From assembly GCA_002441245.1 (NCBI GenBank), contig DJVP01000008.1, positions 234,540-298,539 of the forward strand: DNA of 64,000 nt, in the 5' to 3' direction. The DNA is from Candidatus Omnitrophica bacterium UBA6253 (lineage in GTDB: Bacteria > Omnitrophota > Gorgyraeia > Gygaellales > Profunditerraquicolaceae). The notes under the pieces were generated by a model. That model did not search any database, had not been told where the DNA came from, and worked only from the letters and a program-made list of their open reading frames with translations. Made by a program: the position numbers and the translations under genes. Below are positions 3,123 through 38,919 of this stretch, one piece after another (the first letter of the stretch is position 1; every line of letters starts with the position of its first letter).

Positions 3123-3135
3123 GTTGTGAAACTAA

Positions 3136-4107: not shown

Positions 4108-4146
4108 AATATATTAATTAGCGGTTGGATTATCGGGGGAGGAAGC

Positions 4147-5445: not shown

Positions 5446-5487
5446 GCATCTGTGGGTTAAGAGATCTAGTAGTTTAAGGCAGGGGGA

Positions 5488-7133: not shown

Positions 7134-7137
7134 AGGT

Positions 7138-8574: not shown

Positions 8575-8598
8575 CCATAATTTTACACCTTTTATAAA

Positions 8599-9768: not shown

Positions 9769-9860
9769 AACATGTTAACTCTGTAAATAAAAGCAGGAAT
9801 TTATAAAAGAGATTCCAATTTAACGATAAGCGTGCAATTAAGCATTTATTATTTTAAAAT

Positions 9861-10565: not shown

Positions 10566-10632
10566 GGGCCATAATAATCAAAGGCGTGGCCTGGACGGTA
10601 CTTTAATAAAAATTTAAGAGGATAAAAGGAAA

Positions 10633-12045: not shown

Positions 12046-12076
12046 AATAATTATAATATTGGAATATCTTTAAAGT

Positions 12077-13150: not shown

Positions 13151-13157
13151 TTAATAT

Positions 13158-15229: not shown

Positions 15230-15231
15230 TT

Positions 15232-17467: not shown

Positions 17468-17492
17468 TTGCAATTTAGAGATTTGTGATAAA
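17468..17492 (+). promoter_or_regulatory. putative promoter (TTGCAA ... TGnTAAAAT extended -10)
   Basis: The sequence is acTTGCAAtttagagatttgTGaTAAAATatt. Confidence 0.3.
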
Positions 17493-17562
17493 ATATTATG
17501 GTGACTTTTGTTTTACCCTGCCATTCTGGGATGGAAGCGTTAAATTGAGTGAAGGAGGGAAA

Positions 17563-19402: not shown

Positions 19403-19410
19403 AATTTTAT

Positions 19411-20886
19411 TTAAGCAGCATTGAGGGTAAAACTGAAAGTTGAACCTTCGCTAATCTTACTTTTTACCCATATTCTTCCCTGATGTGCCTCGATAATATG
19501 TTTGACTAAAGTAAGCCCCAGTCCGGTGCCTTTTACCTCCTGGTTAATAGTATTTTCCACCCGGAAAAACTCTTCAAATATCTTTTCTTGTGCATCTTCG
19601 GGAATGCCGAAGCCGGTGTCGGTAATATCTACCTGAATTACCCTGCCTGAGCGGTGGGCGTTTATACTGATTTTACCCTTTTCAGGCGTAAATTTTAGTG
19701 CGTTACCAACTAAATTAATAAAGACCCTTTCAATCTGGCTGCGGTCAGCCAGTATTTTCTGGCAGTCATCAGGTATATTGCTGCTAAAGGTGATATTTTT
19801 TGTTTTCATCTGTTCAGAAAGCAGGTCAGCTACTTTATCGGAGATGTACTTTAGCTCCAGGCTTTCCATATTCATATTTACTTTACCTGACTCAATGCGG
19901 GAAATATCCAGCAGATCGTTTACCATATGCACCAACTCATCGCTATGGCGATTGATCTTTTCAAGCCGGCTTCTTATCTCATCTGGTACGGACCCCAGCT
20001 TGCCGGCAAGTAGAATGGCAGCATAACCTTTGATTGAAGTAAGAGGGGTTCTCAGTTCGTGGGAGACGCTGGAAATAAAGTCGCTTTTGCGCTTGCTTAT
20101 TTTACCTACTTCTTCCAGCGCTTGAGTCAACTGGCTGGTCCTTTCCTCAACTTTTATTTCCAGTTCTTGTTGAGACCTCCAGGTTTTCTCAAAAAGCCGG
20201 GCATTATCTAAAGTCTGGCCAATTTGATTAGCCAGTATAGTAATAAGTTCTTGTTCACCCTCCGTGATGCAGGTTTCAATATTTTGGGTGCCTACGAAGA
20301 TAAAACCTTGGTCTCCTTCCTGGGCCAATATGGGGCAAATAATAAATGAACGCACCTGGAATAACTGATAAATCTTATCTTTTGTTAAGAAATTGTTGGG
20401 AACAAATACGGATGATGCAGTTTTACCGCTGTGGATTAAATCCAGGTAATAATCTTTATCGGCGTTAACGGTAATTTTTATTTTTTCGGATTCAACATCC
20501 CCATATCCGAGATTTAAACATGGATGAAATTCTCGTTTTAAATCGTTCCATAAAAAGGCAAGGGACTTTTCAAATCCTAGCTCTTCAAGGTATTCATTGC
20601 TTATTTTTTTGAAGATCTGTTTTTCTTCCAGGGTAGTGCTGATATCACGGGATAGCTTTTGCAGGATATCAAGTCCGGAGATTTTCTTGTCCAGTTCTTC
20701 CTGAGTTTTATTTAATTCCATGTCCGTGCGCATGATTAATTTTGCCTGCTCATCCATTTCCTCGAGAGAAGTTTTTAACGCCGATATCTGTTTATCTTTT
20801 TCTTTCAGCCTTTGTACTTTAGAAAGCAAGAATATCCCGAGGCCGGCCACAATTAAACAAAAGCTAATAAAGATAAAACTTAACAT
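19411..20886 (-). CDS. sensor histidine kinase (TM, coiled-coil, GAF-like, HisKA, HATPase_c)
   Basis: H-box SHELRTPLTSI. ATP-lid motifs NLVGNALKFT, DTGFGIP and GTGLGL. Confidence 0.85.
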   Translation of the reverse strand: MLSFIFISFCLIVAGLGIFLLSKVQRLKEKDKQISALKTSLEEMDEQAKLIMRTDMELNKTQEELDKKISGLDILQKLSRDISTTLEEKQIFKKISNEYLEELGFEKSLAFLWNDLKREFHPCLNLGYGDVESEKIKITVNADKDYYLDLIHSGKTASSVFVPNNFLTKDKIYQLFQVRSFIICPILAQEGDQGFIFVGTQNIETCITEGEQELITILANQIGQTLDNARLFEKTWRSQQELEIKVEERTSQLTQALEEVGKISKRKSDFISSVSHELRTPLTSIKGYAAILLAGKLGSVPDEIRSRLEKINRHSDELVHMVNDLLDISRIESGKVNMNMESLELKYISDKVADLLSEQMKTKNITFSSNIPDDCQKILADRSQIERVFINLVGNALKFTPEKGKISINAHRSGRVIQVDITDTGFGIPEDAQEKIFEEFFRVENTINQEVKGTGLGLTLVKHIIEAHQGRIWVKSKISEGSTFSFTLNAA

Positions 20887-20887
20887 T

Positions 20888-22111
20888 CTATTGTCCTCCT
20901 AGAGCTAGAACATTTATGCTTTGATTATGGAAATAAGCCCGGCCAAGATAACTTATGGATTTAAGCGGGGCCTGTTCACCGTAAGTATAGATTCCAATTA
21001 AAGGGGTATTTTCTCCGAACACTGCTTTAATTATGTCAAGTTCCCTCGAGCATTGTCTGCCTAAAAGCGTAAATCTTGAAGCAGAATCGAAAATCATTAC
21101 GAATTTTGTTTTTTGCGCCCCGAGGTTCTTTTTTGCTTCTTCGCAGGAGGTCACTGCCGCGGCAAGGCAAGAATCTTTAGTGCCGATCATTAACCGGATT
21201 GGACTATCCTGGGGAATATCCCCCTGGGTAACCAGTGAGCCATCATCTTTTATGGAGATAATGTTGCGCAGGAGATATTCTTTTTCTCCCTGTAGATAAA
21301 TACCTATTGGATAAAAGATAGATATACGTCGTAGTTCTTTAGCCAGCTCTAAGGCGTCTTTAGCAAAATAATCTTCATAGAGTTTTACTGCCGGTTCGCC
21401 GTTGATTTCTTTAATAATATTCCCATCAGCCTTAGTAACGTAGCGTATTTTTCCTAAAGCCTTCCATCCGTGTTTAATCCCGAACCCGAAATTCATTTTA
21501 CCGCCGAAAAGCAACCCGCAACATGAATCCGTAAGTACATCTTTATTGAAGTACTGAAAGGTTTTTGCATAGGCATGATTATCTGATGCAGAGGCGCCGA
21601 TTAAAGGGAAGCTCCTGCCTAGATTTTCCTGGAGCCCGTTAATTAAACTTGTTCCGTCTGATATCAGTCCGTCTGAGAAAATTAAACTCAAGTTCCTGCG
21701 CACATCTTTGCAACCGTATAATAATTTTTCCCCTAATTCCCTCCCAGCAGTAATAGGTGTTTTCTTGTTTACTTCTTTAACCAGGGCAAGATTCAAGAAT
21801 ATCTGTTTACTTAAGCTAATCAGCAGGATGGCAAAACCATGTTTAAATATCCCCTTATTCGTTATGATCCCTAAACTACTGCAGCCCAATATTGGGATAC
21901 CACCCAATAAATTGTTTGCGATTTTTAAAACCAGTGGATGCGCGAATTCTATCGTGGTAAATATAATAGCTAAATCCCCGCGTGTTTTTCCCAGACCGAC
22001 CATAGCCTGCCCAACTGCTTCATTGGTGGCCTGGATATGGTCCTTATTTTCACTAAAGCCCAAACTAATATTCATGCCAGTCAGTATATAATGTAAATAT
22101 GGGAGGGTCAA
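20888..22111 (-). CDS. FIST-domain sensory protein (FIST_N/FIST_C-like)
   Basis: About 400 aa, with glycine-rich FIST-like blocks (GCSSLGII, GGKMNFGFG). It sits immediately upstream of the HK/RR genes with a 1-nt gap. Confidence 0.5.
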   Translation of the reverse strand: MTLPYLHYILTGMNISLGFSENKDHIQATNEAVGQAMVGLGKTRGDLAIIFTTIEFAHPLVLKIANNLLGGIPILGCSSLGIITNKGIFKHGFAILLISLSKQIFLNLALVKEVNKKTPITAGRELGEKLLYGCKDVRRNLSLIFSDGLISDGTSLINGLQENLGRSFPLIGASASDNHAYAKTFQYFNKDVLTDSCCGLLFGGKMNFGFGIKHGWKALGKIRYVTKADGNIIKEINGEPAVKLYEDYFAKDALELAKELRRISIFYPIGIYLQGEKEYLLRNIISIKDDGSLVTQGDIPQDSPIRLMIGTKDSCLAAAVTSCEEAKKNLGAQKTKFVMIFDSASRFTLLGRQCSRELDIIKAVFGENTPLIGIYTYGEQAPLKSISYLGRAYFHNQSINVLALGGQ

Positions 22112-22658: not shown

Positions 22659-22700
22659 GAAAATTTGAGCTTTAAGTTTGAATTCTCAAGGAGGTTAAAC

Positions 22701-23618
22701 ATGAGGCTGAATTTTATTTCTTGTATTATTTTAGGGGTAATTTTTATAGGAGCCCTTGGATGTGATAAAATAAAACTCTCTGTTTCTAAGAAAGCAGAGA
22801 TAATGGAAACAAAAACCGTTCCGGTTGTCCCGCAGGTTAAGGGCCCCATCGTTGCAAAGGTGAATAATATTCCCATTGGATTAGAGGATTTTAACCAGGA
22901 AGTTGAGATTTACAATGCCAATGTCCCCGACGACAGGCCTGAATTAAAGATTACTACCAGGGAACAAAAGGTTAATTATTTAAAAAATGAAGTAGTGCGT
23001 AGAACACTGCTCTATCAAAATGCGCTGGACAAAGGTTTGGACAGGAATGAAGATGTTTTAATGGCGCTGGACAAGACCAAGATGCAACTTTTAGTTATGG
23101 AATTAGTCAAACAGGTTTCGCAAAAAGTCGATGTGTCCTCCAAGGAGATTGAAGATTATTATAATACTTATAAAGAACAACTGAAAGAACCGGAAGAGCG
23201 CCAGGTTATGGAGATAGTTTCTTCTAATGAGCAGGATGCAAGGGATATATTGATTCAACTTTTACAGGGAGGGGATTTTGCTACTCTTGCCAGGACTAAT
23301 TCTAAATCATCCAGCGCTAAGAATGGCGGTGACTTAGGGTTTATTAAGCTAGGAGAAAAATCTCCGCAGTTTGATTCCGTGGCTTTTTCTGATTCTTTGG
23401 AAGTTGGTAAAATAAGCAGTATCTTTAAGACTCCCGATGGATACAGCATAATTAAATTAGAAGGTAAGCGCGGAGGCAAGCAAAAACCTTTATCCGAAAT
23501 GTGGGATGATATTAAAAAAGGGCTTATCTTTTTAAAACAGCAGCAGGTTATTGAAGAGATGATCGGGAAACTTTCCCGCGACGCCAAAATAGATATTTAT
23601 GAAGGGGAGATAAAATAA
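22701..23618 (+). CDS. parvulin-type peptidyl-prolyl isomerase, PrsA/SurA-like probable lipoprotein
   Basis: PpiC domain (NGGDLGFI...FSDSLEVGKIS...TPDGYSIIKLEG). Signal peptide with ALGC lipobox-like Cys. AAGGAGG SD before the ATG at 22701; the track start at 22665 is probably too early. Confidence 0.75.
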   Translation: MRLNFISCIILGVIFIGALGCDKIKLSVSKKAEIMETKTVPVVPQVKGPIVAKVNNIPIGLEDFNQEVEIYNANVPDDRPELKITTREQKVNYLKNEVVRRTLLYQNALDKGLDRNEDVLMALDKTKMQLLVMELVKQVSQKVDVSSKEIEDYYNTYKEQLKEPEERQVMEIVSSNEQDARDILIQLLQGGDFATLARTNSKSSSAKNGGDLGFIKLGEKSPQFDSVAFSDSLEVGKISSIFKTPDGYSIIKLEGKRGGKQKPLSEMWDDIKKGLIFLKQQQVIEEMIGKLSRDAKIDIYEGEIK

Positions 23619-24520
23619 TGGCCATAGAAAAGCAAAAGCTTATTTTAATAAGCGGAGTAGTTCTGGGCATAGTAGCAATTCTAATGACTAAGATATATTT
23701 AGATCAACAGAAGCAGGAGGCTGAGGCCCGGGCAAAGAAATCGCTTGTTAAAATGCAGGCCAATCAGAGTGTGGTTTTGGTAGCCAAACATGATATACCC
23801 AGTGGTTCAGTTATTGAATCTTCGATGATTGATAGTTCAATTGTGCCTAATCAATTTATTCAGCCTCAGGTAGCTACCTCTATAGATAGGGTTTTGGGAA
23901 TGATTAGTTTGGCTCCAATTTCTAAAGGTGAACAGATAAGCCTGTCTAAGCTCTCTAAAGGGCGGAGAGAAAGCGCAGGAAGCAGTTTGGCAGGAAATAC
24001 TCCTGCGGGTAAGAGGGCGATTTCTATTGCCGTGGACAGTATTGCTTCTGTATCTGGCATGGTCATGCCTGGAGATTATGTGGATGTGATTGCTACGTTG
24101 CAAGTTCCTATACAGGGGTCGGATGGGCAGATATCAAGCCAGGTGGCTGTGGTTCCCTTGTTTCAGAATGTTTTAGTTTTAGCCGTAGGCCAGAATACAG
24201 GTTCTGTTGGTAAAACAGGAAGCCGCTATGATGAAAAAGAAACTTCTTCTTCTGGATTGATTACTCTTGCTTTGGGGCCGCAAGAAGCAAATCTTATTGC
24301 TTTTGTCCAAGAACAAGGTAAGATGCGCCTGACCCTGCGTTCTCCAGCAGATGCCAGTGTTGAACAGGTTGTCCCGGCCAGCTGGGAGACTTTATTTCAA
24401 TATATTATGCCTCAACAGAAACCCGTTGAGGTTAAAGAGGCCCCAGTGGTTGATACTGCTACTGAATATGTAGAGGTATTTCGAGGGTTGAAGAAGGAAA
24501 AAGTTTCTCTGTCACAATAA
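23618..24520 (+). CDS. cpaB: Flp pilus assembly protein CpaB/RcpC-like (SAF domain)
   Basis: N-terminal TM helix. The conserved block VLVA(K)xDIPxG is CpaB-like. Its position before the secretin is also CpaB-like. Confidence 0.6.
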   Translation: MAIEKQKLILISGVVLGIVAILMTKIYLDQQKQEAEARAKKSLVKMQANQSVVLVAKHDIPSGSVIESSMIDSSIVPNQFIQPQVATSIDRVLGMISLAPISKGEQISLSKLSKGRRESAGSSLAGNTPAGKRAISIAVDSIASVSGMVMPGDYVDVIATLQVPIQGSDGQISSQVAVVPLFQNVLVLAVGQNTGSVGKTGSRYDEKETSSSGLITLALGPQEANLIAFVQEQGKMRLTLRSPADASVEQVVPASWETLFQYIMPQQKPVEVKEAPVVDTATEYVEVFRGLKKEKVSLSQ

Positions 24521-24599: not shown

Positions 24600-26195
24600 A
24601 TGAGAAAGTTATTTTTTGGCCTATTATTTATTATTACATTTATAACTTTTCTGCCTTTTAAGGGGTATGTTGCAGATGGCGTTGAAGAAGAGGTAAGGCT
24701 TTATATGGGGCAAACCAAGATTATCTCGGTAAGTTCTCCAAAGCGGGTAGCAGTTGGTAATCCTTCGATTGCCGATGTAGCTAATATTGGAAAAAACGAA
24801 CTTACGGTCGTTCCTAAGGCGGCAGGAAATACTACGCTTATTGTTTGGGATAATTTTGGCGAGCAGGCTTATCGCTTAATGGTATTTGCGGAAGATACCT
24901 CTGAGCTTAAACGCCGCATAGACCATATGTTAAAGAAGCTAAATTTACCGGATGTACATACTAGCGCCGAAGATGAAGAGGGTAAGGTTGCGCTTTTAGG
25001 CATGGTTAAGCGTGCGGCAGATAGGGAGCGTATTGCTACTGCCTTAGGGGCGCTTAAAGATAAAACTATTGATTTAATAGTAGTAAAAGAAGAGGAAACA
25101 GTTATAGAGATTGATGTACAGGTAATTGAAGTTAACAGGGGGTCTCAGGATACGCTTGGTTTTACCTGGCCAAGTTCACTGAATTTAACCGAAGTCGGCT
25201 CTCCTGGTATTTCTACTGGCGGGACAACTTGGGGTAAACTATTTCATGTTGTTAACGTAACCAGGGATGCTTTTACCCTTAAACTGGATGCCTTGATTAG
25301 AGATGGTAAGGCGCGAATTCTTTCTAGGCCCAGGGTTTCCTGTCAGAGCGGCAAGGAAGCCAAACTTGTCGTCGGAGGAGAGGTTCCTGTTTTAAGCGGT
25401 TCAGTTACACCTGGTACGAGCGGTTCGACTTCTGTGGGCGCAACTACCGGAGGCTCTGTAGAATATAAGGAATATGGAATTATTTTAAATGTCAGGCCGG
25501 CAATTGAAGATTCTGGACGTATTCATCTTAATCTTGATGTTACTGTCAGCGAGGTTGGGGATGTGGTGAGTACGACTTACGCACTTGCATATAAAATGAC
25601 AAAGCGTACAGCTACAACCGAGCTTTTCCTTGACAATGGGCAAACAATGGCCCTCGGAGGCTTGATTAAGAAAAAATCTACTGAAGAATTAAAAAGGGTT
25701 CCCTGGCTTTCAGATGTTCCGGTATTAGGCCTGTTTTTTAGACAGAGGACTACTTCTCAGGGGTGGAATTCCGATTTATCTAAGGCCGATGATACAGAGC
25801 TATTTATTACTCTTACTCCTCGCGTAATTGAGCAAAAAATGCCATCGAAAGAATTAAGACCGTCAATTTCCGGTACGCCTACGCTTAATGATGATGATAT
25901 AAAGGATCCTGTTGTAAGGTACGCTAGGATTATTCAAAGGAAGATTCTTGAGAACCTTACTTATCCTATAGCAGCTAAAGAAGCAGGTTTTCAGGGTACG
26001 GTAAAATTAAGCCTCAAGCTTTCTGCGCAGGGAGACCTGTTGGATTCAAAAATAAAAGAGCCTTCCAAATATCGTTTGCTCGACGATAACGCGATAAGGA
26101 TAGCGCAGAAGATTGTCCCCTATCCTCCGTTTCCTCCTGCAATAAAAGAAGCTCAACTTTGGGTGGATGTCCCGATAATCTATCAACTGGAATAA
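24600..26195 (+). CDS. cpaC: secretin CpaC/RcpA-like with C-terminal TonB_C-like domain
   Basis: Secretin C-domain (GGLIKKKSTEELKRVPWLSDVPVLGLFFRQ...TELFITLTPRVI). The last ~95 aa, YPIAAKEAGFQGTVKLSLKLSAQGDLLDSKIKEPSKYRLLDDNAIRIAQKIVPYPPFP, match the TonB C-terminal domain pattern. Confidence 0.8.
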   Translation: MRKLFFGLLFIITFITFLPFKGYVADGVEEEVRLYMGQTKIISVSSPKRVAVGNPSIADVANIGKNELTVVPKAAGNTTLIVWDNFGEQAYRLMVFAEDTSELKRRIDHMLKKLNLPDVHTSAEDEEGKVALLGMVKRAADRERIATALGALKDKTIDLIVVKEEETVIEIDVQVIEVNRGSQDTLGFTWPSSLNLTEVGSPGISTGGTTWGKLFHVVNVTRDAFTLKLDALIRDGKARILSRPRVSCQSGKEAKLVVGGEVPVLSGSVTPGTSGSTSVGATTGGSVEYKEYGIILNVRPAIEDSGRIHLNLDVTVSEVGDVVSTTYALAYKMTKRTATTELFLDNGQTMALGGLIKKKSTEELKRVPWLSDVPVLGLFFRQRTTSQGWNSDLSKADDTELFITLTPRVIEQKMPSKELRPSISGTPTLNDDDIKDPVVRYARIIQRKILENLTYPIAAKEAGFQGTVKLSLKLSAQGDLLDSKIKEPSKYRLLDDNAIRIAQKIVPYPPFPPAIKEAQLWVDVPIIYQLE

Positions 26196-26196
26196 A

Positions 26197-28356
26197 ATGG
26201 CCAAGGTAATAGCTATATTCAGCACAAAAGGCGGCGTAGGCAAGAGTTTAATTGCGGTTAATTTGGCCGTGACTCTGGCTAAAGAAGGCAAGAAAGTTTG
26301 TGCGATAGACTTAGATACGCAAGTAGTCGGAGATATGGCGCACATGCTTGGCATTAATCCCCAGAAATGTATGGCGGATTTAATGAGTTTTTTAAGAAAG
26401 CAGCCACAGTTAACCAAAAAAACAGATTTTATTATTAAAACTAAAATTACTAACATAGATTTCCTAGCCGGATTATTGAAGCCGCAACAATCCGGATATC
26501 TTTATCCGGATAAACTTGCAGAAGTATTTAACCTTTTTGATAAAGATTATGACTATATTATTGTTGATGTAGGCAAAAGCTTCAGCGATGTATTCCTTTC
26601 TGTATTAAACCAGGCCAATCTGATTCTTCTGGTGGTTACCCCTGACGTGCTATCCGTATACCAGACAAAATGGGCGTTAGACACTTTGCAGTTCTTGCAT
26701 TTTCCTTTAAGCATGATCAAGCTTGTGCTCAACCGGGCGGAATCAGCTTCAAGTATAAGCTGGCAGGAGATCCGTGTCAGCTTGCCGGTAGATATTATTG
26801 CAAAGGTCCCTTCCGAAGGTAGATTGGTTAATCAGGCAGTTAACCAGGGGGTACCCATAGTTATCGATTCCCCCCGCTCTAAGATCTCTTTAGCTGTTAC
26901 TAGTCTTGCGCACACACTTATTGAAGACAAGGAGCTTTTTATAGAAAGAAGGAACCTTGATCAGATTAAGATTAAAGAATCAGCCCAGGAGAAATCCGGG
27001 CAGTTCTGGGCAGGCCAGGATTTAGAAGAGTCGGTGATCGAGCCCGACGCTGCCGAAGACAGGGATGAGATTTTAATTCTTAAGCGCAGGATACATACCC
27101 GGTTGATTGAGGGCATGAATATCAAGAGGTTGGATCTGAAGGTTTTTAGTGACCATAAAAAGACCAAAGAATTAAGGGATAGGGCAGAGTTAACCGTGTC
27201 AAATCTTTTGGTTGAGGAGGCGGGAAGTTTTATCCCTTCCCAGGAAATAAGAAAGAAGCTTATCAAGGAAATCCTGGATGAGGCCTTGGGGCTAGGTGCC
27301 CTGGAAGATCTTTTGGCTGATCCAGACATCACTGACATTATGGTGAATAATAAAAATGAGATTTTTGTTGAACGCTTTGGCAAGATTGAAATGACCAGTA
27401 AGAAATTTATTTCTAATGATCAGGTCAGGACGATTATTGAACGTATTATCGCTCCCATAGGAAGGCGTATTGATGAATCAGTGCCCATGGTTGATGCACG
27501 ACTTGCCGATGGCTCGCGTGTAAATGCGATTATTTCCCCGCTTTCTTTAACTGGCCCCACTCTTACAATCAGGAAATTCCGCAAGGAAAGATATAAGACT
27601 GTCGATTTGGTTAATTTCGGAGCGCTTACTTTGGAAATGGCGGACTTTATCAGGGCTTGTGTTTTTTGCCGTAAGAACATGATTGTTTCTGGAGGTACTG
27701 GTTCAGGAAAAACCACTGTACTTAATGCCCTTTCAGAAAATATCCCTAATGATGAACGTATTGTTACCCTAGAAGATGCGGCGGAGTTAAAATTAAGTCA
27801 ACAACATTGGGTCAGGCTTGAGTCCCGTCCGCCTAATATTGAAGGCAAGGGCGCCGTTACCATAAGAGACCTTTTTCGCAATACCCTGCGTATGCGTCCG
27901 GATAGGATTATCGTCGGTGAATGCCGCGGCACCGAATCTTTGGATATGCTTCAGGCAATGAATACCGGACATGATGGATCAATGACAACGATTCATGCTA
28001 ATTCAACCTTTGATGTTTTATCGCGGTTGGATTCGATGATTCTTATGTCCGGCATAGAACTTCCTGTAAGGGTTATCCGTGAAATGATTTCTTCTGCGGT
28101 TGATATAATCGTCCACACTGCCAGGCTTTGTGACGGATCGCGTAAGATTACGGCTATTTCCGAGGTTTCCGGGATGAAAGACGAATTACATATAAATTTA
28201 AATGACATATTTATCTTTAAACAAACTGGAATAGATGCCAACGGGAAGGTCCAGGGGTATTTTACCGCCACTGGCCATTTGCCTTCTTTTCTTGAGGAAG
28301 TCAGGATTCGCGGCGTCAAAATCTCCGACGACATTTTTAAGCCCACCAAACCATAA
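26197..28356 (+). CDS. cpaF: fused CpaE-like (ParA/MinD ATPase) and CpaF/TadA (secretion ATPase) protein
   Basis: N-terminus has the deviant Walker A KGGVGKS. C-terminal part has Walker [10 protein letters not shown], Walker [10 protein letters not shown], His-box [13 protein letters not shown] and the CpaF N-domain motif [21 protein letters not shown]. One 719-aa ORF. Confidence 0.8.
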
Positions 28357-28362
28357 AAAATA

Positions 28363-28707
28363 ATGCGCTTAATCAATCAAACCAGGGGCACTGTTTTGGC
28401 GAAAGATATTGTTTTTGCAAATACTCCTTTCAAGAGGCTAAAGGGGTTATTGGGTGATAAAAGTTTCTTGGATGGGCAGGCCCTGATAATCAAGCCGTGT
28501 AATTGCGTGCATACCTTATTTATGCGTTTTTCAATTGATGTTTTGTTTGTGGATAGTAATAATAAGGTAGTTAAGGCTTTAGGCCAGCTTGATCCTTTTA
28601 AGTTCAGTAAAATGTATTGGAATTCGAAAAAGGTTGTGGAATTACCATCTGGTAAATTAAAATCCACTCAAACTCAAGATGGCGACTCACTCCAGTTTTT
28701 AGATTAA
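28363..28707 (+). CDS. DUF192 family protein
   Basis: RLKGLLG...IIKPCNCVHTLFMRFSIDVLFVD...ELPSG matches the DUF192 (COG1430) pattern. Confidence 0.55.
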   Translation: MRLINQTRGTVLAKDIVFANTPFKRLKGLLGDKSFLDGQALIIKPCNCVHTLFMRFSIDVLFVDSNNKVVKALGQLDPFKFSKMYWNSKKVVELPSGKLKSTQTQDGDSLQFLD

Positions 28708-28793: not shown

Positions 28794-31085
28794 GTGGGTG
28801 TAGTCCATAAATTAAAACCAGAAATAATTCAATTTATTCTTGATAATAAACAAGCCAATCCGCATTTAAGCTGCCGCAGCTTAACTACTATGTTGCTGGA
28901 AAAATTCCAAGTTAAAGTTTCTAAATCAAGTATAAATACTATTTTTAAACAAAACAATTTGAGTATGCCTGTGGGCAGGCGTCAAAAACCAAAGAAAAAG
29001 AAGTTTAATATGCCGGCTTTGCCGGTTATTGAAAGTATTAAGACTAATGCGTCTAACGAGGAGTTTCAGAAAAACACTTTGGAAGAGGGGCCTGAGATTC
29101 AGGAAAAGGCAAAGGGCGAAATTACAGAAGAACAACGTATACAGGAAGCAGAGGGCTGGGCAGAAAAATTATTGGAGAAGGAGCATGAACGGCTTGAGCA
29201 GGAAAGGTTGACCCGAGAGGCTCAGGAAAAAAAATCCGAGAATGATGCGATTGAAGAGGATTTGCTGAGGCTGCAGAAGATACAAGAGGAAGAAGACTTA
29301 AGGCGTGAAGAATTAGCTAGGCTTAAGCTTAAAGAGGAGGCTAAGTCTACAGGGGAGCCGGAAAGATTGGCCCAGGAAGAAGAGGCGCAAAGGAAGGCAG
29401 AAGAAGAAAGGTTTGCTAAAGAAGAAGCTGAGAGAAAAAACGAAGCAGAAAAACTCATCAAGGCAAAAGCCGATGCTGAGCTTAAAGAACAAGAGGCTTT
29501 ACGCAAGATTGAAGAGGAGAGAATGCAGGAGGAGCAGTTGAGGCTGCAGAAGATACAAGAGGAAGAAGACTTAAGGCGTGAAGAATTAGCCATGCTTAAG
29601 CTTAAAGAAGAAACTAGGTTGAGGGAAGAGCAGGAAAAACTGGCCAGGGAAGCGGAATTAAAAGCAGAGCATGAACGTTGGGCGCGGCTATCGGAGGAGG
29701 AAGAGAAAAGAAGAAAAAAAGCATTTAATGCCTCCCAGATTGCCAAAGAGGAGGCTAGTGTTGAGTTTCATGCCGGATCATCGTTACCCAAGGAATGTAC
29801 AGGAGCAGTATTATTAAAAGCAATTGACCATTTGATAAAAGGAAGCGTTCAATTAAGTGAAGCTATCCAGAGAAGGTTAGGTTACCCTAAAGAAGAAGTT
29901 GAGGCATTAACTCAAACTTTGATATTCCAGGATATTGTGGGCAATGAGCCGGGCGCCTTAAGCGCTATAACACGCAATGAAATAAGCACTGATAAGTTAT
30001 CGGGTTATTTTACCCAACTCCAAGAGTTAAAAACCATGAAGCTTGATTTATCGCGCCTTTTGGCAAACATATTTACCCAGAGCCGGGGGATCAAGATGCA
30101 TTTTATCGACGGAAGCGTAGTTTATCTTGATGCACAGATGCATACGGTATGGCCTACTCCTTATATGCCCCATGATTTTTCTGCGACAGTCACCAGCGTA
30201 AAGGATTGCATAAACCGGTATTTCTTTAAGGATGGAAATTTAGTCTTATTTATGGCTCCCGGCTATGACATCCCCACAAAAGAATTCTTTACACTGTTGG
30301 TTAATTTTAATTCAAAACATGAAACGGCAGACAATCTTATTTTATACGGCAATAAACTTGATGAATTAGAAAATATTGCTTTAAACCCAGAAGGAAATCA
30401 TAATCTCCTGTTTGCGTTATGGCCCTGGCAATTTACCGCTTACCGAAAAGTAAAAAGAATCGGTGAATTCAGTTCGCAGTTTGTTGATTGCATGAATAAA
30501 GAATTTTATTTGGCAGAGATTGAAATTGAGCTTGTGCAGCCAACAAACATGCAATCGTTTTCACTAAGGGGATGTGCTATAAAATTAAGTTTGGCCGAGA
30601 AGATACGGCTGGTAGTTTTGAGTACCGATGGGTCCAGGGACCTGGTTTCCCTGGCCAATGATTATCTTTGCCGTTGGCCAAACCTTGATGAAGGTCTCCA
30701 TGATTTTAACCGTAAAATTGAATTATTCAGTTGCACGGGGGAATCTCAACAAGTCTTTGCATATGAAGAGCTGCCAATAGGTAAGAGTGAACCAATTGAT
30801 TTAAAGTCTATTTTCTCAGGTTACTCCGAGGCTTTGGATGCTTATTTGAGATGGCATTTTATGCCGCCTGGATATGAAAAAACAGAATTTAAACTAAACA
30901 GGGAACGTTTTTACAGCCAAAAGGCACAAATAATTCAAGGTAAGGACAAGATACAGTACCTTTTTAGTGTTATTAATGATTATGCCTATGCAAAAGACTT
31001 GGAATATATATGCCGAAGGCTTAATGAAAGGGATATACATACTGATGACGGGCAACGAGTTTGTTTTGAAAGCGGTTTCAAATAA
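28794..31085 (+). CDS. large coiled-coil protein with an N-terminal HTH-like domain and charged E/K/R repeats
   Basis: N-terminal ~60 aa look helix-turn-helix-like. Then ~250 aa of ER/EK heptad-like coiled coil with an internal ~91-aa repeat. The C-terminal ~430 aa domain is unrecognised. Confidence 0.4.
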   Translation: MGVVHKLKPEIIQFILDNKQANPHLSCRSLTTMLLEKFQVKVSKSSINTIFKQNNLSMPVGRRQKPKKKKFNMPALPVIESIKTNASNEEFQKNTLEEGPEIQEKAKGEITEEQRIQEAEGWAEKLLEKEHERLEQERLTREAQEKKSENDAIEEDLLRLQKIQEEEDLRREELARLKLKEEAKSTGEPERLAQEEEAQRKAEEERFAKEEAERKNEAEKLIKAKADAELKEQEALRKIEEERMQEEQLRLQKIQEEEDLRREELAMLKLKEETRLREEQEKLAREAELKAEHERWARLSEEEEKRRKKAFNASQIAKEEASVEFHAGSSLPKECTGAVLLKAIDHLIKGSVQLSEAIQRRLGYPKEEVEALTQTLIFQDIVGNEPGALSAITRNEISTDKLSGYFTQLQELKTMKLDLSRLLANIFTQSRGIKMHFIDGSVVYLDAQMHTVWPTPYMPHDFSATVTSVKDCINRYFFKDGNLVLFMAPGYDIPTKEFFTLLVNFNSKHETADNLILYGNKLDELENIALNPEGNHNLLFALWPWQFTAYRKVKRIGEFSSQFVDCMNKEFYLAEIEIELVQPTNMQSFSLRGCAIKLSLAEKIRLVVLSTDGSRDLVSLANDYLCRWPNLDEGLHDFNRKIELFSCTGESQQVFAYEELPIGKSEPIDLKSIFSGYSEALDAYLRWHFMPPGYEKTEFKLNRERFYSQKAQIIQGKDKIQYLFSVINDYAYAKDLEYICRRLNERDIHTDDGQRVCFESGFK
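29266..29613 (+). repeat. intragenic direct repeat, two ~70-nt copies (52 nt identical) with 273-nt period
   Basis: tgaggctgcagaagatacaagaggaagaagacttaaggcgtgaagaattagc occurs at about 29266 and 29539. Confidence 0.7.
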
Positions 31086-31333: not shown

Positions 31334-31498
31334 ATGAAAAATCCTAGATTTAGAAAAGGGCAAAGCGTTATTGAATACGCCATGCTGATTACTATCGTCG
31401 CTGCGGCTTTAATGGCGATGTCTGTATATATAATGCGTTTAATCAATGTGGGGTCTCAACAAACGCAAAAAGAATTAAATTATTGTTGGAATAAATAA
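31334..31498 (+). CDS. flp: Flp/Fap-family pilin (class III signal peptide), 54 aa
   Basis: MKNPRFRKGQSVIEYAMLITIVAAALMAM. The G-x4-EY Flp motif is followed by a hydrophobic helix. GGAGG SD. Below the ORF-track size cutoff. Confidence 0.7.
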   Translation: MKNPRFRKGQSVIEYAMLITIVAAALMAMSVYIMRLINVGSQQTQKELNYCWNK

Positions 31499-31515
31499 TT
31501 TTAGGAGGTGAGAAA

Positions 31516-31683
31516 ATGAGGAGATTTTGCAAGGGGCAAAGCACGTTGGAGTACGTAATTATTTTAGCAGCTGTAGTAGGGGCGATTATCGCGGTCGCTG
31601 CGGCATTGAAACCAAAATTGACCGGCACTTATGATACGCTGGGTAATAAGATGCAGGATAAGGTGAACGAAGTAAACTTCTAA
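31516..31683 (+). CDS. flp: Flp-family pilin, 55 aa
   Basis: MRRFCKGQSTLEYVIILAAVVGAIIAV. AGGAGGTG SD 5 nt upstream. Confidence 0.7.
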   Translation: MRRFCKGQSTLEYVIILAAVVGAIIAVAAALKPKLTGTYDTLGNKMQDKVNEVNF

Positions 31684-31696
31684 GGAGGTGAATGAA

Positions 31697-32020
31697 ATGT
31701 TGAGGTTAATGCGAAAAGGGCAAAGCACGGCAGAATACGCAATCGTTATCGGCTTAGTTATCGCTGCGGCAGTAGCCATGCAGATTTATGTAAAACGCAG
31801 CCTGCAGGCGAAAGTCAAAGATGCGGTAGATTATAATGATCCGGCAGCGACAATGTTATCCACCAGTCAGTATGAACCGTATTATTTATCGTCCGACATG
31901 ACTAATACCCGTAAAGAATCAACCACTGCTGCTACTACTACTGGTGGTGGAGTTACAAGAACTATTAATGAAGATGAGGCCAACAGGACCGGAACGCAAA
32001 ATATAAGTGCAGTTGAGTAA
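31697..32020 (+). CDS. flp: Flp-family pilin with Thr/Ser-rich C-terminal extension (107 aa)
   Basis: MLRLMRKGQSTAEYAIVIGLVIAAAVAMQ, then a T/S-rich tail (STTAATTTGGGVTRT). The likely start is the ATG at 31697 after AGGAGGTG. The track start (GTG at 31688) lies inside the SD. Confidence 0.7.
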   Translation: MLRLMRKGQSTAEYAIVIGLVIAAAVAMQIYVKRSLQAKVKDAVDYNDPAATMLSTSQYEPYYLSSDMTNTRKESTTAATTTGGGVTRTINEDEANRTGTQNISAVE

Positions 32021-32070
32021 GATTTAAGACAGTATTTACGATTAAGTTACTTTTTAAGGAGGTGAAAGCT

Positions 32071-32376
32071 ATGTTTAGGCGTAGTTCTCGAGGGCAAAGT
32101 ACTTTGGAATATGTTATTTTACTCGGTTTTGTGGTTGCGGCGTTGATTGCTATGGGCATCTATATGAAACGTGGGTTTCAGGGTAAATTGAGGGAATCTA
32201 CTGATCAGATTGGTGAACAATATTCTGCTGGTAATACCACTTCGGAATATACTACTACTACTGACATGCAGCAGAATGAGGTTGTGAGCCCAGGCGGAGT
32301 TTCCACGACGACTATCTCAAAGAATCAGCAGATCCGGACAGGTAGTGAAACAGTTAGTGCGTTAAGCGCGGAATAA
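32071..32376 (+). CDS. flp: Flp-family pilin with Thr/Ser-rich C-terminal extension (101 aa)
   Basis: MFRRSSRGQSTLEYVILLGFVVAALIAMG, then TTTTD...STTTIS. Start after the AAGGAGGTG SD; the track start at 32062 is a GTG inside the SD. Confidence 0.7.
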   Translation: MFRRSSRGQSTLEYVILLGFVVAALIAMGIYMKRGFQGKLRESTDQIGEQYSAGNTTSEYTTTTDMQQNEVVSPGGVSTTTISKNQQIRTGSETVSALSAE

Positions 32377-32412
32377 TAAGAGCTGCGATTAGCATTAATG
32401 AAAGGCTTTGCA

Positions 32413-32565
32413 ATGAGGATAGAACGAAAGAAGGCACAGTCTATACTTGAGTATGTTATTTTGTTTGGGGTACTGACTGCGATGGTAGGGGTTACGCTGA
32501 TTGCTGCCTCTTCCGGTGGCGGGCAATTGCAAAGCGCGCTTAAAAGTTATATTGACGGCAGCTAA
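32413..32565 (+). CDS. flp: Flp-family pilin-like, 50 aa (Ala at the -1 position of the motif)
   Basis: MRIERKKAQSILEYVILFGVLTAMVGVTLIAA. Weak RBS. Confidence 0.55.
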   Translation: MRIERKKAQSILEYVILFGVLTAMVGVTLIAASSGGGQLQSALKSYIDGS

Positions 32566-32612
32566 CGGAGTATCTTAATAAGCGGTTTGAATAAAATCAT
32601 ATAGGCGGTAAA

Positions 32613-32765
32613 GTGAGAAACAAGGCGCAAAGTATAATTGAATATGTGATAATTATCAGCGTGGTTGCAGCTGCGGTTGTAGCTATGCAGACATATTTTA
32701 AGCGGGCAGTTAATGCCCGGCTTGAAGAGATTAAACAGGAGTATGTCCCTAAGGTTGCTTCATAG
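32613..32765 (+). CDS. flp: Flp-family pilin-like, 50 aa (GTG start, Ala at -1)
   Basis: V/MRNKAQSIIEYVIIISVVAAAVVAMQTYFKR. Weak RBS. Confidence 0.5.
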   Translation: MRNKAQSIIEYVIIISVVAAAVVAMQTYFKRAVNARLEEIKQEYVPKVAS

Positions 32766-32815
32766 GACTGAGCGAGAGGATAAAGATTTCCTGTTAATTT
32801 TTAGGAAAAGAAAAT

Positions 32816-33106
32816 ATGTTTATAAAAAAAAGAGGGCAGACACTTCAGGAGTATGTTATATTATTGGCCTTGGTGACTACAGCTTTTATTGCTATGCAGG
32901 CTTATATGAAGCGTGGCGTACAGGGCAGGCTGCGGGATTTGGCTAACCAGATTAGTTCTAAACAGTATGAGCCTAATGATACGACTTCTCAAACCGGAAT
33001 AACGCGATCTGGAAGTTCTACCGAAAAAGAACATTTAGGTACTTATACGAACCAAGGTTCTGATACAACCAAAACCAATTATGAGTCAACTACTGTGGAG
33101 GAATAA
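32816..33106 (+). CDS. flp: Flp-family pilin with Thr/Ser-rich C-terminal extension (96 aa)
   Basis: MFIKKRGQTLQEYVILLALVTTAFIAMQAYMKR, then a S/T-rich tail. Confidence 0.7.
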   Translation: MFIKKRGQTLQEYVILLALVTTAFIAMQAYMKRGVQGRLRDLANQISSKQYEPNDTTSQTGITRSGSSTEKEHLGTYTNQGSDTTKTNYESTTVEE

Positions 33107-37213: not shown

Positions 37214-38059
37214 ATGGTTTTATTGCTTAGTATTGTGATTTTGTGTTCAATTATTTTGTTATCTTTGAGCATCCTGCCTTTTTTCATGCAAAAGATACAA
37301 TCCTGGCAGCAAAAGCAGGAGGTTTTAGTTGCTAAAGAAATGGATAAGATGTTTTATGATAAGAGCCCTAAGAGGATTGCCATGCTTTATTATATCCTTC
37401 CCATTTTCTTTGGGCTTAGCGGGCTCATCTTTTTACGTTCACCGTTTTTTATGATTTTTGGCGCGCTTATCGGCCTGGCTACGCCAAGCTTAATTCTTAA
37501 GATGCGTTTTAAACGCAGAGTCCAGAAATTCAACGACCAGCTTTTGGATTCTATTAACATGCTTACTAGCTGTTTAAAAGGCGGCTTAAGCTTATTACAG
37601 GGGATTGAAGTATTGGTGGAAGAGATGCCTGCGCCAATTAGCCAGGAGCTAGGTTTGGTGGTAAGGGAAAATAAAATGGGTATTTCTTTAGAGGAGAGCC
37701 TTGTCCGGCTGAATAAAAGGATGAATCTTGAGGAACTTGGCTTGGTGGTTAACGCGCTCTTAGTTGCCCGTGAAACAGGCGGGGAGTTGACCAAGGTTTT
37801 TAGCCGCCTAAGTGTGACTATAAGGGATAATCACAAACTAAAAGAAAACATAAAAACACTTACTTTGCAGGGGAGAATGCAAGGGTATATTATGTCGTTT
37901 TTGCCGATTATATTTGTTGCCTGGGTCCTTTCAGTTAATAAGCACCATTTTGATATTATGATGAATAATGATTTGGGCAGGATGCTTTTGGTGGGGGCGG
38001 TGATATTGCAGGTTTGTGGAATGTTTCTTATCAGGATGTTTAGTATAATTAAAATATAA
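37214..38059 (+). CDS. tadB: Flp pilus assembly inner-membrane platform protein TadB (T2SSF domain)
   Basis: LSLLQGIEVLVEEMPAPISQELGLVVRENKMGISLEESLVRL...LLVARETGGELTKVFSRLSVTIRD is a GspF-like domain flanked by TM helices. Confidence 0.75.
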   Translation: MVLLLSIVILCSIILLSLSILPFFMQKIQSWQQKQEVLVAKEMDKMFYDKSPKRIAMLYYILPIFFGLSGLIFLRSPFFMIFGALIGLATPSLILKMRFKRRVQKFNDQLLDSINMLTSCLKGGLSLLQGIEVLVEEMPAPISQELGLVVRENKMGISLEESLVRLNKRMNLEELGLVVNALLVARETGGELTKVFSRLSVTIRDNHKLKENIKTLTLQGRMQGYIMSFLPIIFVAWVLSVNKHHFDIMMNNDLGRMLLVGAVILQVCGMFLIRMFSIIKI

Positions 38060-38061
38060 AT

Positions 38062-38919
38062 ATGGATATTTTGATTTACCTTTTGATTATTTCCGCGGTT
38101 GTTTTAATCGCCTGGGCAATGGCCTCTTCCTGGCGAGTTTCAGCTATGCGGTTGAAGCAGGATAATTTTATTGAAAAAGCTAATAAGCCGTTTTTTGATT
38201 TATCTAAACTTCTTCCTACGCGTGATATCCTTGAAAGAACCGGGCTATTAGTAAAAATAAAGAATAAGATTGATGCAGCCCATGTTAATATTTCTCCGGT
38301 TGCATTTTTTAATTTAAAGATAATCATTATGTTTATCTTTGTATTTTTAAGCGTTATTGCTACCGGCAAAATCGACCCCATCTTTATCTTTATTTCCTTA
38401 GGGATAGGATATATTGCCCCTGAAATTTATTTAAAGCAAAAGCTTGCCAAGCGTAAAAACCTGATTTCGCGCCGGCTTCCGGAAACAGTGGACTTGCTAG
38501 GACTTTGCATTGAGGCAGGGCTGGACTTTGTAAGCGCGGTTAGATGGGTGATTGATAAGACTCCAGGTACAGCGATGACTGAAGAGCTGGCATTTGTAGT
38601 TGAAGAGATAAAGTGGGGAAAACCGCGTATTCAGGCTTTAAAGGATATGTCTCGTAGGCTGGATATCCCAGAAATGACCTCATTTGTTCAAACAATTATT
38701 CAGGCAGACCGTATGGGAACTCCGGTTGCAGAAGCCTTTACTATAATCTCTGAAGATGCCCGTGCTCAAAGGTTCCATCGCGGGCAAAGGATTGCCTTGC
38801 AAGCTCCTATCAAAATACTCCTTCCTCTTATATTTTTCATTATGCCTGTGATTGGTATTGTAATTGGAGGTCCAATCCTGCTTCAGTTTATGCAGGGTGG
38901 CCTTACCGGCCTTAAGTAA
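38062..38919 (+). CDS. tadC: Flp pilus assembly inner-membrane platform protein TadC (T2SSF domain)
   Basis: LPETVDLLGLCIEAGLDFVSAVRWVI...ALKDMSRRLDIPEMTSFVQTIIQADRMGTPVAEAF is GspF-like with TM helices. Confidence 0.75.
   Translation: MDILIYLLIISAVVLIAWAMASSWRVSAMRLKQDNFIEKANKPFFDLSKLLPTRDILERTGLLVKIKNKIDAAHVNISPVAFFNLKIIIMFIFVFLSVIATGKIDPIFIFISLGIGYIAPEIYLKQKLAKRKNLISRRLPETVDLLGLCIEAGLDFVSAVRWVIDKTPGTAMTEELAFVVEEIKWGKPRIQALKDMSRRLDIPEMTSFVQTIIQADRMGTPVAEAFTIISEDARAQRFHRGQRIALQAPIKILLPLIFFIMPVIGIVIGGPILLQFMQGGLTGLK

Follow-up and report, generated by a model that had tools for sequence, protein, structure and literature searches.

The Tad secretin encoded by Candidatus Omnitrophica bacterium UBA6253 ends in a genuine, well-conserved TonB C-terminal-type (TonB_C) domain, and this secretin-TonB_C fusion is spread across the little-known phylum Omnitrophota and selectively maintained. 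The gene lies on a stretch of 64,000 nucleotides from contig DJVP01000008.1 (assembly GCA_002441245.1), the whole of which we refer to as the window. Secretins need aid to reach the outer membrane, to assemble in it and to remain fixed there, and each studied secretin system has its own solution, be it a pilotin, an S-domain or AMIN/LysM anchoring. In the case of Tad pili, the TadD pilotin is the sole solution known to us, and we know of no wall anchor. A TonB_C-Tad secretin fusion that is both phylum-wide and under selection points to a different way of supporting the secretin, and its 95-residue TonB_C domain offers a defined handle toward the partner. Omnitrophota are ultra-small and probably predatory or parasitic bacteria; their Tad pili, which are encoded beside giant genes, presumably attach them to their hosts, and the fusion is therefore a detail that bears on host attachment.

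Domain architecture of the secretin

The gene and its parts are as follows:

24600..26195, + strand: Tad (CpaC/RcpA-type) secretin with C-terminal TonB_C, whole gene; a single ORF of 531 aa plus stop
24600..24671, + strand: predicted Sec signal peptide, residues about 1-24, MRKLFFGLLFIITFITFLPFKGYV; from reading of the sequence, with a putative cleavage site
24687..24884, + strand: PF13629 pilus-formation N-terminal domain (T2SS-T3SS_pil_N), residues 30-95; Pfam E 4.3e-16
25290..25832, + strand: Secretin domain PF00263, the outer-membrane channel core, residues 231-411; E 1.7e-39, 135.6 bits against a cut-off of 27.5
25833..25907, + strand: flexible linker, residues 412-436, QKMPSKELRPSISGTPTLNDDDIKD, 25 aa; from AlphaFold pLDDT, dN/dS and comparison with relatives
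25908..26192, + strand: TonB C-terminal-type domain, residues 437-531; from PF03544, TIGR01352, AlphaFold, Foldseek and the family profile

The domains, the RcpA-type solved relatives and the surrounding Tad operon identify the product as a CpaC/RcpA-type Tad secretin, as a first-pass annotation made from the letters alone had proposed. The solved structures closest to it by sequence are 8jvb (E 6e-31) and RcpA 8odn (E 2e-24), which rank ahead of GspD and PilQ. Its N-terminus is a cleavable-type signal peptide followed directly by secretin domains, with the N-terminal membrane anchor of TonB absent; in the AlphaFold model the signal peptide region consists of a helix at residues 2-17 and a low-confidence segment thereafter. 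The PF13629 domain, which is typical of CpaC/RcpA, was detected in 87 of 89 diverse family members.

Between the channel core and the TonB_C domain, AlphaFold assigns residues 413-430 a pLDDT below 50, and constraint is weaker in the linker than anywhere else in the gene (dN/dS up to 0.55). Equivalent linkers among relatives range from 9 to 351 aa and are of low complexity and rich in E/K/S/A/P; some are E/K/R-rich and coiled-coil-like, and in many family members the linker spans merely 9-25 aa. With three prolines in its 25 residues, the linker studied here does not resemble the proline-rich, rigid spacer with which TonB crosses the periplasm. Such a disordered and variable tether fits a domain reaching for a target rather than one packed rigidly on the barrel. 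The AlphaFold model of the whole protein as a monomer (pTM 0.37) places the TonB_C domain without confident contact to the remaining protein.

Identity of the C-terminal domain

The first-pass annotation had recognized a TonB C-terminal consensus at 25900-26195, which corresponds to residues 434-531, by way of the peptide YPIAAKEAGFQGTVKLSLKLSAQGDLLDSKIKEPSKYRLLDDNAIRIAQKIVPYPPFPPA, found at residues 455-514 of the ORF 24600..26195 (+). It proposed profile searches for TonB_C and Secretin as a check, and took the lack of a significant TonB_C match as grounds for abandoning the idea. Both PF03544 and PF00263 are significant on the ORF. The PF03544 match covers residues 452-530 (E 4.7e-15, 56.2 bits against a gathering score of 24.6) and reaches 60 bits when the last 118 residues are scanned alone; the NCBIfam model TIGR01352 (tonB_Cterm) matches at 49.4 bits against a cut-off of 27.1. 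As the TonB_C match is far above chance, refutation by a missing profile match fails.

Structure prediction of the C-terminus, also suggested at that stage, gave a confident TonB/TolA fold for residues 429-531 modelled alone (pLDDT 94.4, pTM 0.82), with helices at 437-452 and 492-504, strands at 466-475 and 480-487, and a final strand at 519-528. The domain displays a YP motif at 455-456 and a PYPPFP loop at 507-512, and Y455-P456 is invariant in 70 homologs. A Foldseek search of the PDB with this model returned TonB C-terminal domains or TolA domain III as all of the top 25 matches; the best superposition was with Neisseria meningitidis TonB (rmsd 1.5 Å over 80 columns), and the rmsd to TonB C-terminal domains ranged from 1.5 to 2.7 Å. 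Consistent with this, a profile of the domain family recovered 6sly (E 1e-14), HasB (9e-8) and E. coli TonB (5e-5) among solved structures. Identity with TolA domain III was considered and rejected: TolA is matched more weakly than TonB in the same search (E 4e-4 versus 1e-14), and the TolA family PF06519 matched only one of the 89 diverse members. The conserved residues of the domain constitute mainly the generic structural signature of TonB_C, and so indicate no particular ligand.

Distribution and selective maintenance of the fusion

A survey for the same fusion elsewhere, the third check called for at the outset, uncovered a large conserved family. In a search of 1.84 billion proteins, 144 of the best 150 cluster representatives (50% identity) combine a secretin with one or two TonB_C domains, and ten of these 144 carry two in tandem. 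The fusion is present in 115 of the 120 closest homologs among the matches listed, while the other five are shorter (397-497 aa) and miss either the PF03544 or the PF13629 match. In a second homolog search, also with 120 listed, the architecture is shared by all but truncated sequences and the most distant CpaC matches. A second subfamily likewise carries the fusion, and 88 of the 89 diverse family members pass the Pfam TonB_C threshold.

A survey of genomic loci, based on an alignment of closer homologs and two secretin motifs and hence weighted toward near relatives, found Omnitrophota-type labels on all 69 full-length fusion loci; for distant fusion members, the cluster records carried almost no taxonomy. 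Stray labels of Nitrospirota, Hydrothermarchaeota, Marinamargulisbacteria and "uncultured Planctomycetales" also occur, and these probably reflect artefacts of binning or automatic labelling.

Metagenome assemblies carry the general possibility that a chance motif, or a false joining of secretin and tonB through assembly error or frameshift, mimics a fusion. This explanation is refuted by the profile E-values (5e-15 and 4e-13), by the confidently predicted fold, by the same uninterrupted fusion ORF recurring in independent assemblies that number in the hundreds and come from several sources, and by the purifying selection that acts on the TonB_C domain, whose dN/dS of 0.08-0.19 is close to that of the N-domain, with the linker evolving faster.

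Homologs are named "TonB family protein" by NCBI, which is misleading because the N-terminal anchor of TonB is absent and a signal peptide and secretin domains stand in its place. Applied by public pipelines, the label conceals a secretin, and TonB systems in Omnitrophota genomes could be overcounted as a result. We found no relevant publication when searching the literature for a secretin fused to TonB_C; Seymour et al. 2023 treat the Omnitrophota RcpA with no mention of TonB.

The Tad locus and the pilotin question

The secretin gene sits inside a complete Tad locus, with the following neighbors:

22665..23618, + strand: PpiC/SurA-like parvulin, predicted lipoprotein chaperone, directly upstream in the operon; Rotamase domains E 1e-16
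23618..24520, + strand: CpaB/RcpC, periplasmic alignment-ring protein; PF16976 RcpC E 1e-24 and a SAF domain
26197..28356, + strand: CpaE/TadZ~CpaF/TadA fusion, 719 aa; AAA_31/ParA at residues 2-241, T2SSE at 365-658
28363..28707, + strand: DUF192 protein, conserved operon member; PF02643 E 5e-15
31334..33106, + strand: Flp-type pilin array of about seven genes; from ORF translations, with the N-terminal motif KGQS[TI][LI]EY
37214..38919, + strand: TadB and TadC platform proteins (two T2SSF genes); PF00482 E 5e-19 and E 4e-15

Most of these genes recur in the 69 fusion loci. The PpiC lipoprotein is found in 58 of them, and its lipobox G32-C33 is invariant across 56 sequences. CpaB is present in 60, and its conserved C-terminal motif is probably the beta-hairpin that in Pseudomonas aeruginosa binds the secretin N-domain. 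The ATG of the CpaE~CpaF gene lies 1 nt past the secretin stop; its product joins a ParA/MinD-like domain to the secretion ATPase in a single protein in 62 of the 69 loci, and the same 719-aa fusion was called in a further locus (L081). DUF192 occurs in 48 loci and also 3' of the nearest non-fusion CpaC, in locus L080. The Flp array, with weak Class_IIIsignal and DUF4244 matches, has homologs in about 35 of the 69. A giant protein is encoded 14 kb downstream of the secretin. The conserved operon also encodes an 81-aa membrane protein, a 763-aa protein and TadE/G pilins. Clustering of all ORFs from 79 related loci yielded no conserved neighbor families beyond those of the window itself; the extra clusters that we inspected were short, antisense within conserved genes, and were judged spurious.

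In P. aeruginosa, assembly depends on the C-terminal tail of RcpA, which recruits the pilotin TadD; this tail is short and unstructured, and its last four residues bind TadD, a TPR lipoprotein (PMC10499894). The secretin described here ends not in a short, unstructured, pilotin-recruiting tail but in a folded TonB_C domain, and no TadD-like TPR lipoprotein is conserved in the 69 fusion loci. The sole TPR gene of the window (17485-18402) was considered as a TadD-like pilotin and set aside, as it recurs in only two of the 69. However, the absence of TadD is not specific to the fusion, since no recognizable TadD was found in the nearest non-fusion Tad locus, L080, either, where CpaC ends in a disordered tail of roughly 90 aa. 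A single model organism is the source for the TadD-recruiting tail, which may not be a feature of the whole RcpA/CpaC family.

Possible roles of the TonB_C domain

Our preferred reading, which we advance tentatively and at somewhat less than even chances, is that TonB_C serves as a tethered, passive periplasmic docking domain on the Omnitrophota Tad secretin. In this secretin, a short flexible tether followed by a complete TonB C-terminal-type domain takes the place of the C-terminal tail. If, as in homologs, both ends of the subunit are periplasmic and 13-14 subunits form the Tad secretin, then 13-14 TonB_C domains would hang on tethers as a skirt around the pore. This skirt would lie just beneath the outer membrane, where P. 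aeruginosa RcpA presents its unstructured TadD-binding tail. In solved complexes of the fold (TonB with its transporters, TolA with TolB), a short disordered strand of the partner is bound by beta-strand augmentation, and it is this mode of binding, taken with the position of the skirt, that leads us to propose a passive docking module. The domain might thus clamp a strand of an outer-membrane or lipoprotein assembly factor, or of another envelope component, and could thereby help the secretin assemble or hold it against pilus forces. A search for a conserved TonB-box-like motif found nothing convincing in the tether of the PpiC lipoprotein, CpaB, the DUF192 protein or the 81-aa protein.

Some members have very long tethers (up to 351 aa) or tandem domains, which speaks against a partner bound at the barrel rim in fixed stoichiometry and would be well matched to a diffuse target, for instance peptidoglycan. 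The main rival to docking is that TonB_C binds the cell wall and so fixes the secretin, as AMIN and TsaP (LysM) do for the type IVa PilQ, an anchoring role that the first-pass annotation had already raised and that we regard as unlikely. It would allow the outer membrane to withstand the pull of a retracting pilus. The flexible 9-351 aa tether and the tandem domains of some members fit such a layer-like target. The affinity of the TonB C-terminus for peptidoglycan that Kaserer et al. 2008 (J Bacteriol) reportedly described would also count in its favor, although our literature search for peptidoglycan binding by the TonB C-terminus found nothing. Moreover, no peptidoglycan-binding or -cleaving component is known in Tad machines (PMC12307814), which leaves the anchor role vacant, and peptidoglycan synthesis is complete in Omnitrophota (bioRxiv 10.64898/2026.06.07.730766). 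Against it, in the solved complexes that the fold search turned up (TonB with transporters, TolA with TolB or phage g3p) the domain binds protein and not glycan, and the many linkers of 9-25 aa may fall short of the wall.

The domains might instead bind each other or another part of the secretin, for example by strand exchange between neighbors, to form an outer collar that stabilizes or nucleates the 13-14-mer without a pilotin. Around the ring they would be highly concentrated locally, no separate partner gene other than the standard Tad genes is conserved beside the secretin, and isolated TonB C-terminal fragments crystallize as dimers; 1u07 and 1ihr, both among the profile sequence matches, are presumably such dimers. 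However, the physiological relevance of these dimers is disputed, a collar would have no need of linkers of up to 351 aa or of E/K/R-rich, coiled-coil-like ones, and in the AlphaFold monomer no contact of the domain with the remaining chain is confidently predicted; we consider self-association quite improbable.

Turning to energized systems, TonB couples to ExbB/ExbD through its inner-membrane N-terminal helix and reaches outward, whereas in the secretin fusion the domain hangs from an outer-membrane channel with neither anchor nor coupling segment. Because the ExbB/ExbD-coupling part of TonB is missing, the fusion is not expected to be an energy transducer and, judged from its sequence, cannot transduce energy by the known TonB mechanism. 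It has been suggested in the first-pass annotation that the domain mimics TonB and engages TonB boxes; in a related form, a TonB/ExbBD or Tol-like motor would link the proton-motive force to the secretin. In favor of such a role, the domain has kept the signature of TonB_C, with both its YP motif and its last strand, the one that in solved complexes pairs with TonB boxes. P. aeruginosa TonB3 has been linked to type IV pilus functions, and ties of this kind between TonB paralogs and pili lend it some further weight. Acinetobacter baumannii TonB2 is another such case (PMC8811193). Yet the protein lacks the TonB anchor, and ExbB/ExbD, TolQ/R, Plug and TonB-dependent receptor domains are missing among the ORFs of the window. 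Neither a TonB-dependent receptor nor ExbB/ExbD was seen in the 79 related loci, and no further TonB_C ORF in these or the window, the loci covering a small part of each genome. Likewise, a 2026 Omnitrophota preprint reports that canonical TonB-dependent receptor clusters are absent in the flanks studied. Of the functional readings in the first-pass annotation the TonB-box mimic has the least support, and we hold a mimic or energized role to be very improbable.

A more speculative variant, which we rate as only a little less improbable than that, is an "inverted TonB", in which TonB_C domains, ringed around the pore and tethered to the outer membrane, would catch a strand resembling a TonB box on a mobile partner. 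Candidates might be an inner-membrane or periplasmic motor protein, or cargo such as the downstream giant protein. If true, the Omnitrophota Tad machine would be coupled mechanically or energetically across the envelope, or would also serve as a gate for recruitment and export, in a manner that no secretin is known to show.

Comparison with known systems

The protein shares with RcpA/CpaC (8odn) the pil_N domain, the secretin core and a C-terminal extension after the secretin domain, as well as an operon with CpaB/RcpC, CpaE/TadZ, CpaF/TadA, TadB/C and Flp pilins; the extension is a short tail in RcpA, and a tether with a folded 95-aa TonB_C domain here. With TonB, HasB and FusB it shares the fold, the signature (YP motif, SSG..LD helix and final strand) and, as predicted from homologs, a periplasmic location of the domain near the outer membrane, and with its best match, the H. 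pylori TonB-CTD, an additional N-terminal helix.

TonB-CTD-like domains also act as structural connectors, according to AlphaFold models, in GltG and GltJ of the Myxococcus gliding machine (PMC11761067), a precedent away from iron transport and nutrient uptake that we count in favor of docking. In this envelope-spanning motility machine (M. xanthus Agl-Glt) they are likewise borne on long disordered tethers, and their predicted partner is the periplasmic GltD (PMC11761067). Unlike the secretin fusion, GltG and GltJ are inner-membrane proteins that operate with a TolQR-like motor and are not fused to an outer-membrane channel.

Among other secretins, the S-domain of GspD/InvG occupies the same C-terminal position and binds a pilotin, while the N-terminal AMIN domains of PilQ, together with the LysM of TsaP, bind peptidoglycan; both differ in fold and are not TonB_C. 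The S-domain, AMIN, the TsaP LysM and TonB_C are alike in being modules added on or beside a secretin, and the known ones target, assemble or anchor the channel.

A TonB-type domain at the C-terminus of a Tad secretin

The first-pass annotation had claimed a TonB_C-like tail on a Tad secretin at 25900-26195, which is the 3' end of the ORF below; the peptide it quoted corresponds to residues 455-514. Three domains of this ORF pass the Pfam gathering scores:

24600-26195, plus strand: secretin ORF, 531 aa
Residues 30-95: T2SS-T3SS_pil_N (E 4.3e-16)
Residues 231-411: Secretin (E 1.7e-39)
Residues 452-530: TonB_C, PF03544 (E 4.7e-15; 56 bits vs gathering score 24.6)

The PF03544 score rises to 60 bits with the last 118 residues as sole query, and the NCBIfam profile TIGR01352 (tonB_Cterm) matches the ORF with 49 bits (cut-off 27). 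Since both matches are significant, the observation survives the HMM check. For the N-terminal 413 residues the best solved matches are the Tad-type structures 8jvb (E 6e-31) and P. aeruginosa RcpA (8odn, E 2e-24), which outrank GspD and PilQ; these relatives, and the position of the gene within a complete Tad locus, likewise bear out its identity as a Tad secretin. The protein has a signal peptide, lacks the TonB-type N-terminal anchor, and carries the TonB_C domain after the final strand of the secretin core.

An AlphaFold model of the full-length protein has a mediocre overall pLDDT of 68, unsurprising when a secretin is modelled as a monomer, with residues 437-528 at 86-90 and residues 413-430 below 50, the latter being consistent with a flexible linker. 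Residues 429-531 modelled alone, guided by 60 aligned sequences of diverse domain members, reach a pLDDT of 94.4 and a pTM of 0.82, with the topology helix, short helix, two strands, helix, strand. The top 25 Foldseek matches of this model in the PDB are all TonB C-terminal domains or TolA domain III, including N. meningitidis TonB (rmsd 1.5 Å over 80 columns; target-normalised TM-score 0.78), H. pylori TonB-CTD, FusB, and P. aeruginosa and E. coli TonB. The domain is of the TonB type and not of the TolA type; a sequence profile of its family matches H. pylori TonB-CTD with E 1e-14, HasB with 9e-8 and E. coli TonB with 5e-5, and TolA with merely 4e-4.

Selection on the domain and its linker

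Residues Y441, Y455, P456, A459, G463, G466, L470, G478, S489, L494, P507-Y508-P509-P510-F511 and L530 are invariant across 70 close homologs.

Pairwise dN/dS of the UBA6253 gene against ten relatives
N-domain: 0.05-0.21
Secretin core: 0.04-0.11
Linker: up to 0.55
TonB_C domain: 0.08-0.19

The linker that joins the secretin to TonB_C spans 9-351 aa (median 33) among representatives and is of low complexity, rich in E/K/S/A/P and at times coiled-coil-like. Given these purifying-type ratios and the variable linker, TonB_C is a conserved head borne by a tether that varies. Ten representative clusters (P0151, P0155, P0161, P0167, P0171, P0185, P0193, P0254, P0257 and P0262) display tandem TonB_C pairs after the secretin; in others the linker measures 100-351 aa and in some cases is coiled-coil-like, recalling TolA domain II. 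In the four closest comparisons, a small sample, dS of the TonB_C-coding 3' end (25908-26192, plus strand) is 0.25-0.37 vs 0.44-1.24 elsewhere in the gene; possible reasons are recombination, an RNA element or translational coupling with the downstream gene.

Distribution of the fusion

The same three Pfam domains occur in 115 of the 120 proteins nearest to the query in the database (58-100% identity); the remaining five are shorter (397-497 aa) and lack the PF03544 or PF13629 match. A profile search of 1.84 billion representatives recovered 932 matches at E ≤ 1e-30, the best 150 of which were scanned with HMMs built from the fusion family: 144 combine the secretin with TonB_C (one copy in 134, two in 10), and five of the six without it are fragments. 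When 89 diverse full-length members sharing 28-55% identity with the query were scored independently, Pfam TonB_C was found in 88. Among the matches listed for a search seeded with a distant member were about 115 fusion proteins, the named ones all Omnitrophica, and secretins without TonB_C appeared only at E ~1e-34. An artefactual fusion is excluded. One MAG encodes two fusion paralogs (51% identical).

A survey of one genome per GTDB species, seeded with two secretin motifs, so that separate fusions in distant lineages may escape it, recovered 69 loci aligned through residue ~530. Most are labelled Omnitrophota or Omnitrophica, and the rest plain "bacterium" or "uncultured Planctomycetales/Planctomycetia", which we regard as automatically assigned; one partial locus bears the label Marinamargulisbacteria. 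For secretins of Smithella, Kuenenia, Singulisphaera, Thalassospira, Gemmataceae and Caulobacteraceae the match covers residues ~186-414 only.

Gene neighborhoods

The complete Tad locus codes for an 81-aa membrane protein, a PpiC/SurA-like parvulin, CpaB/RcpC, the secretin, a CpaE/TadZ-CpaF/TadA fusion, a DUF192 protein, a 763-aa coiled-coil protein, about seven Flp pilins, TadE/G-like proteins, TadB and TadC:

18467-22111, minus strand: FIST-domain protein, histidine kinase and receiver-GGDEF regulator, divergent and upstream of the Tad operon
22665-23618, plus strand: PpiC/SurA-like parvulin, invariant lipobox G32-C33
26197-28356, plus strand: CpaE/TadZ-CpaF/TadA fusion, a single 719-aa protein
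28794-31085, plus strand: 763-aa protein, weak N-terminal HTH-like match, no family assignment
31334-33106, plus strand: about seven tandem Flp-type pilin genes, 50-110 aa

The CpaE-CpaF fusion gene starts 1 nt past the secretin stop and joins CpaE/TadZ (ParA/MinD-like, aa 2-241) to CpaF/TadA (T2SSE, aa 365-658). Homologs occur in 62 of the 69 related loci, one (L081) with the identical 719-aa arrangement; in the nearest non-fusion Tad locus CpaE and CpaF are encoded separately. The 763-aa protein (homologs in 41/69 loci) has a long E/K/R-rich coiled-coil region with an internal duplication (LRLQKIQEEEDLRREELA.LKLKEE, twice). The pilins share the N-terminal motif KGQS[TI][LI]EY, several bearing long Thr/Ser-rich C-terminal extensions. 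The FIST, kinase and GGDEF module accompanies the operon in 32-33 of the 69 related loci, roughly half, which suggests c-di-GMP control of the pilus.

Beyond the operon, a frame that starts 1.6 kb past tadC runs without a stop for at least 7,835 codons (40496-64000, plus strand) and is still open where the window ends. It is an Omnitrophota giant gene, whose first 1000 residues contain a glycine-zipper motif and, at aa 177-261, a Peptidase_C39-like domain (E 2e-11); Tad/T2SS genes are known to flank such genes (2026 preprint). The 1.6-kb gap holds a 64-aa ORF (39078-39272, plus strand) that resembles, by eye alone, a transposase-like protein fragment. At the other end, a 17-kb one-strand gene run (472-17376, plus strand) probably serves to modify surface glycans or lipids, with four B12-binding radical SAM enzymes, three radical SAM/SPASM proteins, GT2 glycosyltransferases, GDSL lipases, a polysaccharide deacetylase and a PMT_2-type transferase.

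Predicted role of the domain

In P. aeruginosa RcpA an unstructured C-terminal tail places its last four residues in a groove of TadD, the lipoprotein pilotin, and assembly depends on this contact (PMC10499894); RcpC touches the secretin N-domain via a beta-hairpin (PMC12307814). No TadD-like gene is conserved nearby in the 69 loci; the window's TPR gene, considered as TadD-like, recurs in just two of them. TadD is also absent from the nearest non-fusion Tad locus (L080), whose secretin ends in a ~90-aa disordered tail. The parvulin gene lies immediately upstream of cpaB in 58/69 loci, and its product, a predicted lipoprotein chaperone dedicated to the Tad operon, might substitute for a pilotin. 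No strand motif is conserved in the tether of this parvulin. The window genes and related loci yielded no partner for the TonB_C domain, and 79 related loci contained neither a second TonB_C ORF nor conserved neighbors other than the window's own genes.

The 13-14 tethered TonB_C domains would ring the channel beneath the outer membrane. The Foldseek matches include complexes of the fold with transporters or TolB, in which a disordered strand of the partner is captured by beta-augmentation. On this ground we favor passive docking toward a protein partner, which may aid assembly or anchoring of the secretin. The main rival is anchoring to peptidoglycan, a layer-like target that would fit the tandem domains and the variable, at times very long tethers, Omnitrophota do make peptidoglycan (bioRxiv 10.64898/2026.06.07.730766), and Tad machines have no known peptidoglycan-binding component (PMC12307814); however, our literature search retrieved no evidence of cell-wall binding by this fold. 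A self-associating collar is possible but unsupported.

Standard profiles detect the fusion. Sources name the closest proteins "TonB family protein [Candidatus Omnitrophota]" or "pilus assembly protein CpaC", the former being the name given by public pipelines and wrong as a functional label because TonB's anchor is missing. Our literature search found no description or discussion of the fusion; TonB goes unmentioned in the main study of Tad systems in Omnitrophota (PMC10066038), and in a 2026 preprint "TonB C-terminal domain" genes are listed beside giant genes without their nature being recognized. The channel is known, as is the promiscuous domain; their combination and topology are new to description, and of moderate interest pending a partner or phenotype.

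Compared with TonB itself, which couples to ExbB/ExbD through its N-terminal anchor, the fusion secretin has a signal peptide and no such anchor, so coupling of that kind is impossible; a TonB mimic or energized system is the least supported reading, neither receptor nor ExbBD genes being present in the window or related loci. For TonB-CTD-like domains as connectors, GltG and GltJ of the Myxococcus gliding machine offer a precedent (PMC11761067).
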